Of a stretch of 64,000 bases of DNA, positions 5,074-19,603 are shown piece by piece. Position 1 is the stretch's first letter. Each line of letters begins with the position of its first letter. The stretch comes from a virus (Duplodnaviria; Heunggongvirae; Uroviricota; Caudoviricetes): the IMG/VR virus record IMGVR_UViG_2778261375_000003, one strand, 5' to 3'. A program made the position numbers and the translations under genes. The notes under the pieces were generated by a model. The model saw only the letters and a list, made by a program, of their open reading frames with translations. It ran no database searches and was not told the DNA's origin.

Positions 5074-5826
5074 ATGGCAGTATCTGACCAGACCCGCAGC
5101 GGCGACCTTGCCGAAACATTTAAATCTGAACGGGAAACAACAAAGAACCAGATCCGTGTCGCCTTGCCTGGCATTGTTCAGTCATTCGCTCCTGATGCGG
5201 TGACGGCGGTTGTACAGCCTGCTATCCGTTACGTTGAAATTGATAACGACGGCAACCGCATTACCAAAAATTACCCATTGCTGGTGGATGTGCCAGTGGT
5301 ATTCCCGCGTGGCGGAGGCTGTACGCTAACGTTTCCAGTTAAAGCCGGTGATGAATGTTTGGTGATTTTTGCCGATCGTTGTATTGATTTCTGGTGGCAG
5401 AGTGGCGGGATACAGGAGCCGGTCGATGACAGAATGCATGATTTATCGGATGCGTTTTGTATTGTCGGTCCCCAGTCGCAGGCAAGGAAGATTAGCGGTA
5501 TTAATACCAGTGCCACACAGTTGCGTAGTGATGACGGCAGCACCTATTTTGAGCTTAATCCTGATACCAGGAAAATTAAAATTGTCGCTCCGGGGGGCCT
5601 TGATGTGGTTGCCCCTCTGGCTGATTTTTCTGAGAAAGTAACCATTCATGGCCTGTTAACCTGGATGGGAGGCATGGTGGGGTCTGTTGTTTCTGGTGTG
5701 GCTTCAAAAATCACTGGTGCTGTTGAGTTTTTGGGTAGCGTGAAGGCTAACGGCAAGCCAATCGATGATACGCACACTCATGGTGGTGTTCAGCGCGGTG
5801 GAAGCAATACCGACGGAGTAAAATGA
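5074..5826 (+). CDS. baseplate spike protein (gpV / Mu gp45-like)
   Basis: OB-fold-like N-terminal region and C-terminal HTHGG motif typical of V-type spikes; first gene of a coupled V-W-J-I block. Confidence 0.6.
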   Translation: MAVSDQTRSGDLAETFKSERETTKNQIRVALPGIVQSFAPDAVTAVVQPAIRYVEIDNDGNRITKNYPLLVDVPVVFPRGGGCTLTFPVKAGDECLVIFADRCIDFWWQSGGIQEPVDDRMHDLSDAFCIVGPQSQARKISGINTSATQLRSDDGSTYFELNPDTRKIKIVAPGGLDVVAPLADFSEKVTIHGLLTWMGGMVGSVVSGVASKITGAVEFLGSVKANGKPIDDTHTHGGVQRGGSNTDGVK

Positions 5827-6179
5827 TGCGATACAGACGTGAAGACGCCGATGGCGATTACACCTTTGGCAGCGGTGATGACACCTGGCTGATTAACTCA
5901 CCGGAGGCCGTGGCGCAGGCGGTAAAAACGCGATTCGAATTGTGGTATGGGCAATGGTTTCTCGACACCACCGAGGGGACTCCGTGGATCCAGTCCGTAC
6001 TCGGTAAGCAGAAGCCGGAAACCTACAACCTAGCGATCAGAAAACGCATTCTGGAAACGCAGGGCGTTAAATCAATCCTCTCTTTCAATACGACGGTGGA
6101 TACCACGACCCGACGTGTCATGTTTTCCGCTGAAATCGACACTCTCTATGGAATAACGACTGTTACATCGGAGGCGTAA
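5823..6179 (+). CDS. baseplate protein (W / gp25 position)
   Basis: 118-aa ORF overlapping V stop (ATGA) and J start (TAATG); assignment by position. Confidence 0.45.
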   Translation: MMRYRREDADGDYTFGSGDDTWLINSPEAVAQAVKTRFELWYGQWFLDTTEGTPWIQSVLGKQKPETYNLAIRKRILETQGVKSILSFNTTVDTTTRRVMFSAEIDTLYGITTVTSEA

Positions 6180-7378
6180 TGGCTCTGAACCTTGATTCTC
6201 TCGGTTTATCTGCAAAGGTAACCGCGGAGGGGATCAGTGCGCCTGATTATCAGACGATACTCAGCACCCTGATTAGCTATTTTCAGCAGATTTATGGCAG
6301 TGATGCCTACCTCGAACCGGACAGCAAAGACGGCCAGATGGTGGCTCTGATGGCGCTGGCGATTCATGATGCCAATAATATGGCGATAACTGTCTACAAC
6401 TGTTTTTCACCGGCAACCGGCTATGGGGCTGCACTGACCAGTAACGTGAAAATAAATGGTATTTCACGTAAAGGCGCGACGAATTCTACGGTTGATTTGC
6501 TTCTTACAGGAACTGCCGGGGCAACCATCATTAATGGCAGCGTGAAAGACAGTAATAATGTGATATGGCGTTTGCCTGCTTCAGTGGTGGTCGGCGTGGA
6601 TGGTACAGTGATGGTGACCGCAACATGTTCCGTCAGTGGTGCAGTGGCGGCGCTGGCTGGAACTATCACTGAAATTAATACGCCAACCCGTGGCTGGATT
6701 TCGGTAACCAATCCTGCTGCAGCTACTGTAGGCACTCCAGCAGAAACTGATGCTGAGTTACGTATCCGCCAGTCGCAAAGTGTTGCGTTGCCATCAATAA
6801 CCCCATTTGAAGCACTGGATGGTGCTGTTTCTAATGTTGCCGGTGTAACCCGCCACAAACTCTATGAAAACGATACTGGTTCGGAGGACGGTAACGGGTT
6901 ACCGCCACACTCTGTTGCTGTAATTGTGGATGGTGGTGATGTGACGGATATTGCTCAGGCTATCAGAGGGAATAAAGGCCAGGGGACAGCCACTCACGGT
7001 ACAACATCCGTTACGGTTCTGGATAAATACGGCAATCCCCATGTAATCAAATTCTCGCGTTCCAGTGATGTACCTGTTTATGCCCGGATTAAATTAAAAG
7101 TTTTTACGGGTTATACCTCACAGATAGGGCAGCAGATCCAGCAGGCTATTTCCGACTATATCAATAGTCTGATGATTGGTGATTCGGTCCTTTTAAGTCG
7201 CATTTACTCACCGGCGAATCTTGGCGTGGTGAGTGGCGGGAATGCACGCTATTACGATATTCAGGAACTGACGATTGGGAAATCCCCGGGGGCTTTGTCG
7301 TCATCAAACATTGATATCAGATACAACGAATCTGCGTCCTGTACCCCGGAAAATATCGTTATAACGGTGGAGTCATGA
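6179..7378 (+). CDS. baseplate J-like protein
   Basis: 399-aa ORF at the J position, coupled to W and I. Confidence 0.55.
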   Translation: MALNLDSLGLSAKVTAEGISAPDYQTILSTLISYFQQIYGSDAYLEPDSKDGQMVALMALAIHDANNMAITVYNCFSPATGYGAALTSNVKINGISRKGATNSTVDLLLTGTAGATIINGSVKDSNNVIWRLPASVVVGVDGTVMVTATCSVSGAVAALAGTITEINTPTRGWISVTNPAAATVGTPAETDAELRIRQSQSVALPSITPFEALDGAVSNVAGVTRHKLYENDTGSEDGNGLPPHSVAVIVDGGDVTDIAQAIRGNKGQGTATHGTTSVTVLDKYGNPHVIKFSRSSDVPVYARIKLKVFTGYTSQIGQQIQQAISDYINSLMIGDSVLLSRIYSPANLGVVSGGNARYYDIQELTIGKSPGALSSSNIDIRYNESASCTPENIVITVES

Positions 7379-8055
7379 GCAAATACACCGAACTAATCAC
7401 AAACTACCACGCCACCAAACCTAAATTTCTTGCACATGTTGATCTGATGACCCGGCCGCTTATTGATGTTGCGGCTGCCACCAGAGGGCTGATTACTGCA
7501 TTTGATATTGACTCTGCGGTTGGTGTGCAACTTGACATTCTGGGATTGTGGATCGGACGTAGCCGTGTTGTCAGCCAGCCTATCTCAGGTGTCTATTTCA
7601 GCTGGGATACCGACGGGCTTGGATATGATCAGGGGGTATGGCAGGGACCATACGATCCTGATTCCGGATACATGTACCTCAGCGATGAAACTTATCGTGT
7701 CATTCTTAAAGCGAAGATTGCGATTAATAACTGGGACGGACGGAATGATTCGCTTCCGGCAATTCTTGACGCTGCAACAGCAGGATCCGGGCTGCGAATG
7801 CAGATAGTCGATAACCAGGACATGACGATATCGGTCTGGGTCTTTCCTGATACTGATATTTCAGATGTATCGCGTGAGTTAATTGCGGCAATTAAACAGG
7901 GGTATCTCACAGTAAAAGTCGCCGGGGTATGGGCGGGTGGCATTGAAACACCTTCGGTGGAAACCCCATCGGAAGGCTCAAAATTTTTTGGTTTTGATAT
8001 GGATAACGAATTCATCAGTGGTTTTGATGTAGGAGCATGGGGAGTATTACTCTGA
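7375..8055 (+). CDS. tail protein I-like (baseplate wedge)
   Basis: 226-aa ORF at the I position; stop overlaps fibre start (TGATG). Confidence 0.5.
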
Positions 8056-8828
8056 TGGCGAAAAATGACTTTAAAGCGTTTGCAACGGATCGAAATGCCA
8101 ATGTTATATCGCAGGAGGAATGGGAAGCGTTGCCCGCGCTTTTATCCGGATTTACAGCAGGGAAAGCCTCCAGTGCGCAAGTCAATAAGGTTATTCGGCA
8201 GGCCAGCTTTATTGCTGCAGCTCTGGCCCAGTTTGTAAGTGATAAAACGCAACGGGATGTGCTTGATAATGGTGATCTGCCCGGTTTTGTTGAATTGCTG
8301 GGATCGGGGTTTGCTGTTGAATACCTGAGCCGCAAGAATCCGTTTGGTGATATCAAATCGGATGGCACGGTGAAAACGGCTCTCGAAAACCTTGGTTTGG
8401 GAGAAGGTTCGGCATTACCCGTTGGTGTGCCTGTCCCGTGGCCTTCCGCCACTCCGCCAACAGGCTGGCTAAAATGCAATGGTGCGGCTTTTTCTGCTGA
8501 AGAATACCCGGAACTGGCAAAGGTTTATCCGACAAATAAATTGCCTGATTTACGCGGTGAATTTATTCGTGGATGGGATGATGGGCGTGGGGTGGATTCC
8601 TCTCGTGGTTTGTTGACATCTCAAGACCATTTATTTGCTTCTCATGGGCACTGGTTTGACAAGTACTATGCGCTAACAGGTTTTGATACAACGGGAGGTC
8701 GGTTCGTAGTTACGGCTGATGCTTTCGGGGAACTTATTAAGGCAAATTCAATTTCTACGGTATCGGTTGGTGGTTCTGAAACCCGGCCGCGCAACGTCGC
8801 ATTTAACTATATCGTGAGGGCAGCCTGA
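8055..8828 (+). CDS. short tail fibre protein with tail-collar-like domain
   Basis: Start taken at ATG 8055 ([12 protein letters not shown]...); motif [22 protein letters not shown] resembles the phage tail collar domain. Confidence 0.6.
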
Positions 8829-14592: not shown

Positions 14593-14948
14593 AGCACCAC
14601 GTCCTGTGTGATAGTTATATCCCTGATACGAATGGATATTTTCAACTTATCAAAAGCATCTCCCTCGGCTACTGACAAGCCAGAAATCGGTATGTCAGGT
14701 AAATCTACCGTCAGTTTTTGCAACAGCATTGCCTCAACCGCAATTTGAACATGCGACAAGTTGGTCGGTTCGTGTTTAAACTGCGGTAAAACATTGCCCC
14801 ATGACGGATCCCCGTATACCTCACCCTGATAAGTGTTTAGCCACTCATATAAACGAGCGCCCCAGGCCTCCTCCTGGGACTCATACGTTTTTACGCCGGA
14901 TAACTCCAGCGTCAGCAAAGGATCAATTTCGTTATTGTTGGCCATCAA
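14589..14948 (-). CDS. baseplate wedge protein (gp25 / W-like)
   Basis: 119-aa ORF; GEVYGDPSWGNVLPQF resembles the gp25/GPW core; overlaps the tape-measure stop. Confidence 0.5.
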   Translation of the reverse strand: MMANNNEIDPLLTLELSGVKTYESQEEAWGARLYEWLNTYQGEVYGDPSWGNVLPQFKHEPTNLSHVQIAVEAMLLQKLTVDLPDIPISGLSVAEGDAFDKLKISIRIRDITITQDVVL

Positions 14949-17900
14949 TCAACTCTCGCGTAGTCATTCATCAACGGATCATCAATTGACAGTGGTACCG
15001 TGCGCATAACGCCCGGCTGAGGCGTGCTGACCTTTACGACAGTTCCCTGGCCTTTCGCCGAGTCTTTGGTGTGCTCTTCAATCCTGGCAAGCAATGAGGC
15101 CATCTGCGCAAACAGCCGCTTCGTTTCACCATCAAGTGAAACGGTATTATCAGCCAACTGCATTGTCGGCTTGGCACCGGAGCCGCCAAGGTCACTAATA
15201 ACCTGTCCGTCTATCTGCATACGACCGGTTGGTTGCTGCAAATCGTTGGCGGCAGTCGTCACCTTGGACGTGGAGGCTGGTTCAGGCGCATTATTTTTCC
15301 GCATCCCCGGCGAGTTGCGGAGTTTATCGAATAGTCCATCAATCTCCATTTGTGCGCCGAGTTGGTCAAAGTAACTTGAGTTGTTGGCCACCGGACGCGC
15401 CTCTTCAACTGGCATCGGAGTATCAACATACACATTGCCAGCTGCTGTTGCGGTCCCCTTCCCTCGTGCACGTTCTTCGAGCGTTCCCTGAACGACTTCC
15501 CGACGCATACCCCGGCCATTCATGAATTTGTTGACCAGATCGTTAACGCCAACAGCATTGCCGATTTTGTCTACCAGACCGCCTTTCTCAAACGGGCTAT
15601 CACCAGGGGTAAATGCCAGGCCAGTAGACTGATCGATAACAGCGTTATCAGGCAGTGGTCCCCTCACTCCATATTGCGCCCCACCCTGTGCTCCTGCTCC
15701 AGGTGTATAGATTTCACCACCTAAATAGCGAGCACGATGAGTATTGACCTTGATCGCGTACTCACGGTTTTCTTTGGATAAGTCACCTGTGCCTTTTTTC
15801 CACTTATTGATAGTGCCAAACCCAGCGTTATATGCAGTGATGGCCTCGTTTAAGTCTCCATTGGCTTGCTTCAGATACTTGCTCATGAGAAGAGCCGCAG
15901 CTTCTGCCGATTTCACAGGATCAAACGATTCACCTTCAGCTAAGCCAGTCTCTTCACGAGCAATCCCCGTGAACTGAAACATTCCCAGAGCACCGGTTTG
16001 GGATTTTGCATACGGATTACCACCAGATTCAGTTGCAGCAATCGCGTAAAGAGTGCCTTCTGGAAGACCGTATTTATTCTCTAGTTCGGCAAAATACGGA
16101 GCCAACTTATCGAGATTTGCCTTACCTTCAGCGCCAAGACTTCCGACTTTTACATCTAAGTTGCCATTGTTGTAAGTATCCGCAGCTTTCTGAATGTCAT
16201 TCCTGGTGCCAGTAGTATTAAGCGACGATGATGATGAGCTATTTTGACCAATAGCATTATCAATTTTCTGCAACGCGCTATTGCCCGTTTCTACGGCATT
16301 TGCATTGATAATCTGATTGGCAGTTTCTTTAACTGTTTTATTGCTATCTTTCGCCGTATCTAGGGATGCATTTACAACACGAGTGACAATATTAGCCTTT
16401 TTAGGGGTATATTCAGTCTTAGGAGCATTGTCCTCCTGACTTTCTTTAGCTGGTGTTTTTAATTCAGGTGTAACCTCTTTCGCATCCGCTTTGTTGACTA
16501 GCTTTGATGCAACCCAGGCCACAGGGGTGCTCTGAACAGCGGCATCTGCAACCTCACCTGAAAGCTCTTTTGCGGCACTCCATAGATTACTGCCAGCTTC
16601 TTTAATGTATTTCCCTGGGTTCTTAATGAAATCAATTGCACTATCAATTGCATCACTGAAAACCTGTTTCAGGTTATCGACAGTAAAGAAGTTTTTGATG
16701 GCGTCTAATTTTTCGTTCAGGTTCTTTGTTGTGTCACTGAACCATGCTGAAATAGCATCACCAATCTTTGCAGTATAATCACTAAATGTCGTGGATATAG
16801 TATCACCAAGGTTAGAAATATATGTTTCTAAATTGGTAATCCCACTATCAATGGCCTGGGCAATACTTTCCGTCGAAAATGATTGCAACATATTGCCGAT
16901 ATCCTCAAATCCAAGTGATTTGAGAACGCCGCCAATGGCACTGCTAATACCAGATACCAGTCCTCCCATATCGAGAACGTTAGCCAGTGTATAAGCCGCT
17001 TTTTGCTGAAAAGATGGATCTTCCCCATCCTTAAGCCCAAAGGTCCGACGTTGTGCTTCTGTATCATTCCAACCGGTTACCGCATCATAGATACCTCCAG
17101 CCACCGTGCCGACTAGCGGAATTGCGCGTAAAGCCCCCTTTGCAAGAGCCTTAACACCTAGTTTCCCCAATCCCTTAGTTGCAAGTTTTCCGGCACCGCG
17201 AGTAGCCAATTCGCCAGCTTCTTTGGCAGCAGCTTTTTTCCCACCAAAGCCCAATAAGCTTGCAACTTTTTTTATACCTAAAGCGCCTAGTGCCATCGAG
17301 CCAACTTTCTTTAGTACCCCACGGCCAAAAATAAGGGAAGCAATACCACCGGCCCCCTTCCCTAACAGGCTAAATAGTTTGGACAGCAAGCCGCCCTTCT
17401 TTTTCCCGGTGTTTTTGGCTATCTGATCAAGGGCGCTGAGAATCTTGTCATTGCCCTCTTTAATTTCGCTGGTCTGCTCCTGAAGTTCCTGAACCGTCCG
17501 TTTTTGGGTGTTAACCTGAACGACATCGGCACTATTTTGCGATTTACGCCTAAAAAAACCTTTTCTACGGCTGTTATCGTCATTGCCACGAATCACATCG
17601 GCAATAGACTTTCTGGCACCATTAAGCGATCCACCAACTTCTTTTGATATCCCGCCAAGCTCCTTCCCTGCTGCCCACAATGGACCAGCAACGGCATAAC
17701 CTAACGCATCGACGGCACGAGTCTCTGAAGGGTTACCTATGCCTTCAGCTACTTTTGACAGTTTTTTTAATAAACCTGATTCAGCATTTAGACGCTCATC
17801 ATCCTCTTTGCGCCTGGCCTTTTCAGCACGTTCAGCACGGGCATCTTCCGCTGCGGCCTTACTCCCTGACTTTCCAATAAAACGACCACGCGCATCGCGT

Positions 17901-18640
17901 TGGTTTTGGCTTTTTTGCGCACCGCCTTTTTGATCGAACATTTTGCGAGCGTGTTCGGCTGCTTCGGTCCGTTGTGCCTTTATATCCTCTGGTATAGCCT
18001 TCCTGCGTCGTTTTTTACCCTTTGGTGTAGTTGATTTGGCCTGCTGTTCCTGTTGAGCAATGCCCTCCTGAACTACACGAGAAACGTCCCCTAAATTAAG
18101 CCGTTTCATTGCATCAACAATAGGGTCTACTGATGGCGCATTGGCCACAAAGTCTGGCCGGGAATTTTCGATTGTTCGATTTAATGCCGACACACTGCGA
18201 GATACTGGGTCAACCGTTGCAACGCGTTCCCCTTTCAAATCACGATCGAGTTTGACCGTTTCTAACCGCTGTGCTTTAACATCCTCTGTTATTGCCTCTC
18301 TTCGTCTATTTGGGGGATTGTGCGCTGTTGGTGCAGCCTGCTGTTCACGGTTAGTGACTTTGTCCTCCCGTATACGAGAAACGTCCCCTAAATTAAGCCG
18401 TTTCATTGCGTCAACAATAGAGTCCACTGATGGCGCATTGGTCACAAAGTCAGGACGTGAATTTTCGATTGTGCGATTTAATGCCGACACACTGCGAGAG
18501 ACAGGATCAACAGTTGCAACTCGTTCCCCTTTCAAATCTTCAACAGCTTCCCGAATACCTGCAAGCTCTTCCAGCTCTTTCGCGCTGGCGGTTTCAACTG
18601 TCCTTATAACATCGTCAATATTGGCGTTTTTTCTTTCCAT
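14945..18640 (-). CDS. sit: tape-measure / injection protein with lytic transglycosylase domain (Sit-like)
   Basis: 1231 aa; SLT motif YAIAATESGGNPYAKSQTGALGMFQF; Gly/Lys-rich repeats; internal duplicated segment near the N-terminus. Confidence 0.7.
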   Translation of the reverse strand: MERKNANIDDVIRTVETASAKELEELAGIREAVEDLKGERVATVDPVSRSVSALNRTIENSRPDFVTNAPSVDSIVDAMKRLNLGDVSRIREDKVTNREQQAAPTAHNPPNRRREAITEDVKAQRLETVKLDRDLKGERVATVDPVSRSVSALNRTIENSRPDFVANAPSVDPIVDAMKRLNLGDVSRVVQEGIAQQEQQAKSTTPKGKKRRRKAIPEDIKAQRTEAAEHARKMFDQKGGAQKSQNQRDARGRFIGKSGSKAAAEDARAERAEKARRKEDDERLNAESGLLKKLSKVAEGIGNPSETRAVDALGYAVAGPLWAAGKELGGISKEVGGSLNGARKSIADVIRGNDDNSRRKGFFRRKSQNSADVVQVNTQKRTVQELQEQTSEIKEGNDKILSALDQIAKNTGKKKGGLLSKLFSLLGKGAGGIASLIFGRGVLKKVGSMALGALGIKKVASLLGFGGKKAAAKEAGELATRGAGKLATKGLGKLGVKALAKGALRAIPLVGTVAGGIYDAVTGWNDTEAQRRTFGLKDGEDPSFQQKAAYTLANVLDMGGLVSGISSAIGGVLKSLGFEDIGNMLQSFSTESIAQAIDSGITNLETYISNLGDTISTTFSDYTAKIGDAISAWFSDTTKNLNEKLDAIKNFFTVDNLKQVFSDAIDSAIDFIKNPGKYIKEAGSNLWSAAKELSGEVADAAVQSTPVAWVASKLVNKADAKEVTPELKTPAKESQEDNAPKTEYTPKKANIVTRVVNASLDTAKDSNKTVKETANQIINANAVETGNSALQKIDNAIGQNSSSSSSLNTTGTRNDIQKAADTYNNGNLDVKVGSLGAEGKANLDKLAPYFAELENKYGLPEGTLYAIAATESGGNPYAKSQTGALGMFQFTGIAREETGLAEGESFDPVKSAEAAALLMSKYLKQANGDLNEAITAYNAGFGTINKWKKGTGDLSKENREYAIKVNTHRARYLGGEIYTPGAGAQGGAQYGVRGPLPDNAVIDQSTGLAFTPGDSPFEKGGLVDKIGNAVGVNDLVNKFMNGRGMRREVVQGTLEERARGKGTATAAGNVYVDTPMPVEEARPVANNSSYFDQLGAQMEIDGLFDKLRNSPGMRKNNAPEPASTSKVTTAANDLQQPTGRMQIDGQVISDLGGSGAKPTMQLADNTVSLDGETKRLFAQMASLLARIEEHTKDSAKGQGTVVKVSTPQPGVMRTVPLSIDDPLMNDYARVD

Positions 18641-18721
18641 GATCTTATCGCCTACCGTTTCGGTTTAAGTTTTTCTTCCAGTTTCTCCAACAGGAAAAAC
18701 GCATAGGATTCAGTAAGCCTT

Positions 18722-19603
18722 TCAGCGTCCTGAATCGGTATACCCCCATACAAAACCAGGTTGGACACTAAGGTCTGATAGCTTTTCAATCCCCACCTGT
18801 GGAATGAAGTCGGTAGCCCGAAAGGGCACCCACAGACGGGTATATGCACCCTCTGTGGACTCCTTTTTATCCTGATTTGGGCATTTATGCGGCGGGAGAC
18901 GAAGACGCATTTCACCTTTATCGATGTAGCACGGTAAACCATGTTCGAGCTTTTCATGAGCCAGTCGGATGTGTGCCGCCAGCTTCATAAATTCAGTATC
19001 AATGGCCATCCGTTTAATCGTTTCATAACGACGCTCAGCCTGATCTTCACGAGTACCGCTAACATCGTTATAAAGCTCACACTGATAAGCGAATTCCCAA
19101 AAACGCAAATCAACGATCGCTTCTTTGAATTCCGCGTCGTCTTCAGGTGGCAATGCTGCACGGCGCATCTCCAGCATTTCCATTGCCCAACCATCAAGCG
19201 GCACGATACGCCATTGATAAGGTACTCCCTCTACAGACACCTCAATATCGTCAATGAAAGGTTCCACTTCCAGGACCTGGATATCTTCAGCCAGAGCATT
19301 CATATCGCAATCGTAATAATGCTCTTTACCGCAATGTTTACAGGTGTAGGTGAATGTCTCGACCGGTGTTTCACGGGAGCCGGTAAATATCCACCATAAC
19401 GCGGTAATCCGGTCCTGCGCCGTCCATGTCAGGGGATCATGTTTCGCGGGTTCAGCAAGCAAGGCTTTTAAATACGCCGTTGTCTGTTGTTCTTGTTCCT
19501 CCGGTGTTATCGAGTTGAAACGCATCGCATCAGCAATATTTGGCTGACGGAACTGGATCAATTCAGTTGGCCGCGATGGTAGCGGGAAAAGAGGTAAAAG
19601 CAT
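18722..19603 (-). CDS. hypothetical structural protein with Cys cluster
   Basis: 293-aa ORF upstream of sit on the same strand; CKHCGKEHYYDCD cluster. Confidence 0.4.
   Translation of the reverse strand: MLLPLFPLPSRPTELIQFRQPNIADAMRFNSITPEEQEQQTTAYLKALLAEPAKHDPLTWTAQDRITALWWIFTGSRETPVETFTYTCKHCGKEHYYDCDMNALAEDIQVLEVEPFIDDIEVSVEGVPYQWRIVPLDGWAMEMLEMRRAALPPEDDAEFKEAIVDLRFWEFAYQCELYNDVSGTREDQAERRYETIKRMAIDTEFMKLAAHIRLAHEKLEHGLPCYIDKGEMRLRLPPHKCPNQDKKESTEGAYTRLWVPFRATDFIPQVGIEKLSDLSVQPGFVWGYTDSGR

Follow-up and report, generated by a model that had tools for sequence, protein, structure and literature searches.

A tandemly duplicated 99-codon unit in the tape measure gene sit of a P1-like phage, and copy-number variation of the unit among relatives

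The window, by which we mean the whole 64,000-nucleotide stretch of virus record IMGVR_UViG_2778261375_000003 that was analysed, contains a tail gene region in which the longest open reading frame runs on the minus strand from an ATG at position 18640. This frame is the sit gene, and the features of the gene and its upstream neighbour were as follows:

14945-18640, minus strand: sit, 1231 AA, the tape measure protein or structural injection transglycosylase of a P1-like phage, defined by open reading frame and translation
15767-16096, minus strand: SLT lytic transglycosylase domain (PF01464), Sit residues 849-958, E = 4.8e-27
16439-16489, minus strand: a second length-variable element, a 17-residue unit around KEVTPELK that is present in a single copy, Sit residues ~718-734
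18722-19603, minus strand: pmgB (phrog_1854), immediately upstream of sit

The window, and with it the sit gene, was 100% identical to Escherichia phage phi456 (OR339795.1), a P1-like phage, and the gene shared about 92% nucleotide identity with sit of phage P1. In a PHROG profile search the protein matched phrog_2533 with 2439 bits, the 1130-position profile covering residues 134-1231 and a second matched stretch reflecting the extra unit described below, and the PF01464 domain scored 94.3 bits against a cut-off of 21.3. The gene order tub - pmgB - sit - pmgA - bplA was that of P1, and it places sit between the tail tube and chaperone genes on one side and the baseplate genes on the other, as is found for tape measure genes. 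Sit is labelled 'putative structural injection transglycosylase; putative tail ruler' in the P1 record, has been found in P1 virions by LC-MS/MS and assigned as the tape measure (Gonzales et al., PMC9024508), and was listed as the tape measure of the tail lumen and baseplate in a 2026 cryo-EM study, where low-resolution density was seen at the baseplate centre, the tape measure was reported as ejected from contracted particles, and Sit itself was unresolved in the maps (PMC12810830). We concluded that the protein belongs to the P1 Sit family and, by position and literature, of the tape measure class, in agreement with an earlier note on this DNA, which had called the gene a tape-measure/injection gene. 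A small open reading frame at 18652-18957 (minus strand, 101 codons) overlaps the 3' end of pmgB and the pmgB-sit spacer; it had no PHROG match, and its counterpart in phi456 is Orf23, annotated as a 39-AA hypothetical protein.

A direct-repeat search of the gene returned one long family, 18030-18241 and 18327-18538, with copies of 212 nt at 84% identity and a spacing of 297. Two adjoining 297-nt blocks aligned without gaps at 77% nucleotide identity, with differences at 67 of the 297 positions. They form a tandem duplication, head to tail and in frame, of a 297-nt (99-codon) unit. Each unit consists of a conserved core followed by a diverged tail:

18248-18544, minus strand: repeat unit A, Sit residues 33-131, the extra unit that is absent from P1, P7, SJ46, and RCS47
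18374-18544, minus strand: core of unit A, 57 codons, conserved
18248-18373, minus strand: tail of unit A, 42 codons, IREDKVTNREQQAAPTAHNPPNRRREAITEDVKAQRLETVKL, a marker of alleles that have at least two units
17951-18247, minus strand: repeat unit B, Sit residues 132-230, with a tail that corresponds to the tail of P1's single unit
18077-18247, minus strand: core of unit B, 57 codons, conserved
17951-18076, minus strand: tail of unit B, basic and containing KGKKRRRK

The 57-codon core has the sequence LKGERVATVDPVSRSVSALNRTIENSRPDFV.NAPSVD.IVDAMKRLNLGDVSR. Over unit codons 4-57, cores A and B were 92% identical in nucleotide sequence (13 differences in 162 nt) and identical at 52 of 54 amino acids, compared with 60% nucleotide and 41% amino acid identity for the two tails, which are charged and still alignable (EQQA, RRR, AI.ED.KAQR). 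Tail B was 94% identical to the tail of P1. Because the 132 nt between the cores are diverged tail and not a spacer, the repeat is strictly tandem with a period of 297. The earlier note had marked two near-identical segments of about 165 bp, 297 bp apart. Those segments exist, at 18077-18241 and 18374-18538, and correctly mark the cores, although "near-identical" suits the protein and overstates the match of the DNA, and the intervening 132 nt belong to the true unit. The peptide that the note quoted, its place near the N-terminus, and the in-frame nature of the duplication were all borne out, on the minus strand. In 20 shuffles of the gene the best ungapped 162-nt self-match never exceeded 44%, whereas in sit itself it was 92%, which excludes chance. 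Tandem Repeats Finder did not report the array, since two copies at 77% identity score too low.

The copy number of the unit in relatives was determined on DNA, a protein search with the N-terminal 363 AA having given mostly fragments, and tail A was counted at an identity of at least 95% in PLSDB plasmids and complete E. coli genomes. One unit with a B-type tail was found in P1, P7, SJ46, JL22, RCS47, and MH422554, two units in vB_EcoM-673R5, and three in vB_EcoM-813R1, with frameshifts interrupting sit in the records of the latter two phages. Among PLSDB plasmids, sit was present in 479 records and tail A, and hence at least two units, in 137 of these; eight records had two tail-A places, and the order A-A-B was verified in three. 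Among 5426 complete E. coli genomes, 470 carried sit and 198 of the carriers (42%) had tail A, with the three-unit junction tailA-core-tailA in eight genomes. For IMG/VR, the best 80 of 95 loci comprised 60 one-unit and 19 two-unit alleles and no three-unit allele. Intact three-unit reading frames were found in pEC2_5 (1340 AA) and in a plasmid of strain A_5 (1322 AA), and four other three-unit records formed one lineage with a downstream frameshift in sit, verified in pEC15-3 and pXH987. Lengths of intact Sit proteins were 1100-1145 AA with one unit, 1225-1263 AA with two, and 1322-1340 AA with three. The copy number in homologues, which the earlier note had proposed comparing, thus varies from one to three. 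A two-unit Sit is functional, given that phi456 yields plaques and myovirus particles (PMC10967188).

Several observations on individual records accompanied this survey. In pEC15-3 and pXH987 (L010 and L011, a Hangzhou lineage) the frameshift falls near codon 460, after ...DDNSRRK, and leaves reading frames of 505 and 846 AA; either tail assembly may be impaired in these phage-plasmids or a sequencing error may account for the frameshift. The record NZ_CP029117.1 was considered as a three-unit case and rejected, as it holds two separate two-unit copies or places. In two RefSeq/PGAP records the annotation of sit departs from the reading frame: in NZ_CP020522.1 (L092) the sit CDS begins about 700 nt downstream of the true ATG and omits unit A, and in NZ_CP195583.1 (L095) an uninterrupted 1322-codon frame is split into a 'partial' pseudogene and a shorter CDS. 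In some multi-unit alleles, current automatic annotation thus yields a shortened or divided sit, which makes the polymorphism easy to overlook, and we found no mention of it in the searchable structural, proteomic, and comparative papers on P1. One predicted protein, P0018 (1009 AA), is chimeric: it begins inside tail A, continues across unit B as far as about GKELGGI, and from there on is unrelated sequence. It represents a rearranged P1-like element or else an assembly error. The 17-residue unit in the middle of the gene, EANAKEITPELKAPVNS, occurs once here and in P1 and in two or three tandem copies in some relatives (variation was seen in L010 at 5781-8321, L015, and L023). Part of the remaining variation in Sit length derives from this mid-gene repeat, with one to three copies, together with other small indels.

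Divergence between the two copies was estimated as dN and dS by the method of Nei and Gojobori. Between the cores we obtained a dN of 0.017 and a dS of 0.32 (dN/dS 0.05), with 11 of the 13 differences synonymous in the sit frame, and this low ratio and the predominance of synonymous differences indicate that both cores are held by purifying selection on the protein. Between the tails, dN was 0.475 and dS 0.97 (dN/dS 0.49), and the charged tail evolves freely. For comparison, phi456 and P1 differed over the 200 codons after the repeat by a dN of 0.004 and a dS of 0.037 (dN/dS 0.12), so that, judged at silent sites, the split between A and B is roughly ten times older than that between phi456 and P1.

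These values bear on the reading that the duplication is an assembly artefact or a very recent event private to this genome. Tandem repeats can be mis-assembled, and the frameshifted sit of the 673R5 and 813R1 records could be taken in the same sense, but here the copies differ at more than a fifth of their positions and the two-unit structure recurs in the finished plasmids, in the complete E. coli genomes, and in the IMG/VR contigs counted above, while a recent duplication is contradicted by a core dS far above that of the flank (0.04). We regard this reading, which was implied in the earlier note, as extremely improbable, and the array as old. It is equally improbable, in our judgement, that the core is conserved on account of a DNA-level element or an opposite-strand gene and not of Sit. 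There is indeed a plus-strand frame of 175 codons antisense to the repeat (18141-18668), and an antisense frame of 274 codons in three-unit alleles, but the core differences are mainly synonymous in the frame of sit, the plus-strand frame had no PHROG match, and its length simply rises with the number of repeats. Such a frame is the expected by-product of a repeat without stop codons.

To describe how the units are related across alleles, we defined as diagnostic those sites at which the first and the second unit of two-unit alleles consistently differ. In 63 of 65 one-unit alleles the core was A-like at its 5' end (sites 1-71) and mostly B-like from site 86 onward, and was followed by tail B; three rare alleles had the switch point elsewhere. 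The middle unit of three-unit alleles had the opposite arrangement, with a core that was B-like at the 5' end and A-like at the 3' end and was followed by tail A, and its switch points lay at sites 102-119 in pEC2_5, 44-71 in strain A_5, and 119-171 in pEC15-3. Some two-unit alleles had a mosaic core in unit 1. Hybrid junction units of reciprocal polarity, as in arrays shaped by unequal recombination, were thus present, and from their sequences the hybrid cores are the reciprocal products expected of unequal homologous crossover or conversion inside the core of about 170 bp. From the differing breakpoints it follows that at least three expansions were independent. In the mechanism that we propose, the cores would be sufficiently alike to serve as sites of unequal homologous recombination, between or within phage genomes, and whole units would be gained or lost, giving rise to the sit alleles of one, two, and three units in the population. 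The suggestion in the earlier note that the duplication is a substrate for recombinational length variation is supported by this polymorphism and by the hybrid cores.

This pattern suggests that one-unit alleles of the P1 type arose by contraction from an older two-unit allele. The opposite course is possible, namely that a diverged block was imported into a one-unit allele; a single-unit allele with tail A, which would represent the donor lineage, was found in none of the 65 one-unit sequences. A runs test on the hybrid pattern of P1 gave p ~0.07, and the outgroups were too diverged at silent sites for polarising one-unit versus two-unit ancestry, so we advance the contraction as a suggestion. 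The surrounding sequence had a variability pattern of its own. The first ~400 nt of sit (~18250-18640, comprising the N-terminus, the core, and tail B) had 5-9 differences per 100 nt among P1-like genomes, compared with 0-3 per 100 nt in pmgB and in the sit codons past the repeat, and two-unit alleles were found on several flank haplotypes. The 5' portion of sit is a local hotspot of recombination or diversity.

The consequences of an extra unit for the protein depend in part on its structure. An AlphaFold2 model of Sit residues 1-440 had a mean pLDDT of 38.9, with helices at residues 8-37 and from about residue 262 onward, and in this low-confidence model both units were mostly coil with two short helices. 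As long helices begin only at about residue 262, the units may lie outside the rigid ruler. The 11-residue aromatic periodicity described for siphophage tape measure repeats (PMC8616913) was not apparent in Sit, where 9 of 101 pairs of F or W within 110 residues were spaced at multiples of 11, as expected by chance. Searches of the unit against Pfam, NCBIfam, PDB, and PHROGs identified no known domain beyond the Sit families, and when a single unit was searched exhaustively with HMMER in a set of 1.84 billion representative proteins, no relatives outside P1-like Sit proteins were found; a weak match in seven stretches to a repetitive surface protein (P0021, 26% identity) was judged spurious. 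A single, poorly conserved unit is present in each of the distant relatives P0017 (44% identity) and Cronobacter phage JK004 (47%), a finding that fits a tolerant and variable N-terminal region, and in P0017 the region downstream of the unit is strongly conserved.

Such features could be accommodated by a neutral or near-neutral length polymorphism in a flexible N-terminal segment that is not part of the ruler, where additional residues would be taken up as slack in the lumen or near the terminator and tail length would be unchanged. The predicted non-helical character of the units (in a low-confidence model), their weak conservation in P0017, and the many other indels tolerated across intact Sit proteins of 1100-1340 AA all favour this reading. 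Strong purifying selection on both cores is difficult to reconcile with dispensable sequence, however, and in phages lambda, T4, and TP901-1 large in-frame indels all changed the length of the tail. We consider neutral slack a credible minority view. The combination of a short, strongly conserved core with a freely evolving charged linker might instead indicate a binding module, directed for example at PmgB, the tail terminator, the DNA end, or, once Sit has been ejected, a component of the host envelope, whose copy number would tune assembly or injection and not length. The adjacency of pmgB, whose product has been put forward as a tape-measure chaperone (PMC9024508), and the reported ejection of the tape measure before full DNA release (PMC12810830) are compatible with such a role; a unit that matches no known domain and is confined to P1-like Sit proteins argues against it, and we think this explanation unlikely.

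Taking these results together, we somewhat favour the explanation that sit carries a two-unit array with both cores under selection, that unequal recombination changes its copy number, and that a longer tail is the most likely phenotype. The earlier note had suggested that the duplication could alter tail length or injection-channel properties, and both are to be read as possible effects. If the length of the tape measure itself sets that of the tail, an extra unit would give a longer tail. In lambda, T4, and TP901-1 the tail changes in length when the tape measure is lengthened or shortened in frame, which makes a longer tail the likeliest effect and, by analogy, a plausible one here, and to our knowledge large in-frame insertions or deletions have changed tail length in every tape measure tested experimentally. 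These cases are in-frame deletions and duplications, engineered or spontaneous, reportedly studied by Katsura and Hendrix for lambda gpH, Abuladze et al. for T4 gp29, and Pedersen et al. (2000) for the TP901-1 TMP. The P1 tail measures 2450 Å and has 53 rings with a rise of ~40 Å (PMC10304247). Spread over the P1 trunk, the 1140 residues of its Sit correspond to ~1.86 Å per residue, more than the 1.5 Å of an α-helix, so that part of the protein must be extended; at 1.5 Å per residue, 1140 AA would span 171 nm and so fall short of the 212-nm trunk. The extra unit would add ~149 Å (3.7 rings) at 1.5 Å per residue or ~184 Å (4.6 rings) at 1.86 Å, and each additional unit would thus be predicted to lengthen the tail by ~15-18 nm, or 4-5 tube and sheath rings beyond the 53 of P1. 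Gonzales et al. argued that the ~750 helical residues of Sit fit a '120 nm' P1 tail (PMC9024508), but the length argument for a purely helical ruler does not close for Sit, because the tail seen by cryo-EM is 245 nm long and not 120 nm.

More speculatively, the alleles of one, two, and three units could correspond to discrete tail-length classes of about 53, 57-58, and 61-62 rings that are recurrently interconverted by unequal recombination, a natural and reversible 'tail-length switch' that we put forward as a tentative idea with the odds against it. If true, the classes would possibly be maintained because different host envelopes favour different reach, and as a corollary the textbook sit allele of P1 would have arisen secondarily, by contraction from an ancestor with two units. 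P1-like phage-plasmids are widespread and carry resistance genes, and P1 itself is a classical model phage. Tests of the ruler mechanism have so far relied almost entirely on laboratory mutants, and sit offers a natural allelic series of one, two, and three units (1100-1340 AA) in a phage whose 53 rings have been counted, which therefore permits a direct test of whether an N-terminal and probably non-helical segment counts toward the ruler.

Among known systems, the closest is P1 Sit itself (AAQ14011.1, 1140 AA), an orthologue that shares the operon position, N-terminus, SLT domain, and C-terminus of the protein described here but has a single 99-residue unit, whose core is a hybrid of core A (5') and core B (3') and precedes a B-type tail; our protein has the additional A-type unit and a length difference of 8 AA elsewhere. 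The tape measures of phage T5 (pb2) and mycobacteriophage TM4 resemble Sit in that a muralytic domain is fused to the tape measure, and the likeness of Sit to tape measures fused with a peptidoglycan hydrolase has been pointed out previously (Gonzales et al., PMC9024508). The enzyme families and phage morphotypes of T5 and TM4 are other than those of Sit, and our literature search found no comparable 99-residue copy-number polymorphism for these two tape measures. That tape measures evolve in length as repeats are gained and lost is already known in principle, as is recombination between tandem repeats. Tandem repeat units with an 11-residue aromatic periodicity in siphophage tape measures were reportedly described by Belcaid et al. 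in 2011, and their length evolves by gain and loss of units as in sit, the 99 residues of our unit being 9 x 11. Those repeats are short and helical with a periodicity that Sit lacks, whereas the Sit unit is a 99-residue core-plus-linker. Finally, lambda gpH, T4 gp29, and the TP901-1 TMP resemble sit in the in-frame length change of a protein that occupies the tail lumen, from which a proportional change of the tail would be expected, and differ from it in that the repeat of sit falls in a region modelled, at low confidence, as mostly coil. They are laboratory constructs with measured tails, whereas sit presents a natural and frequent polymorphism in a contractile-tailed phage-plasmid.
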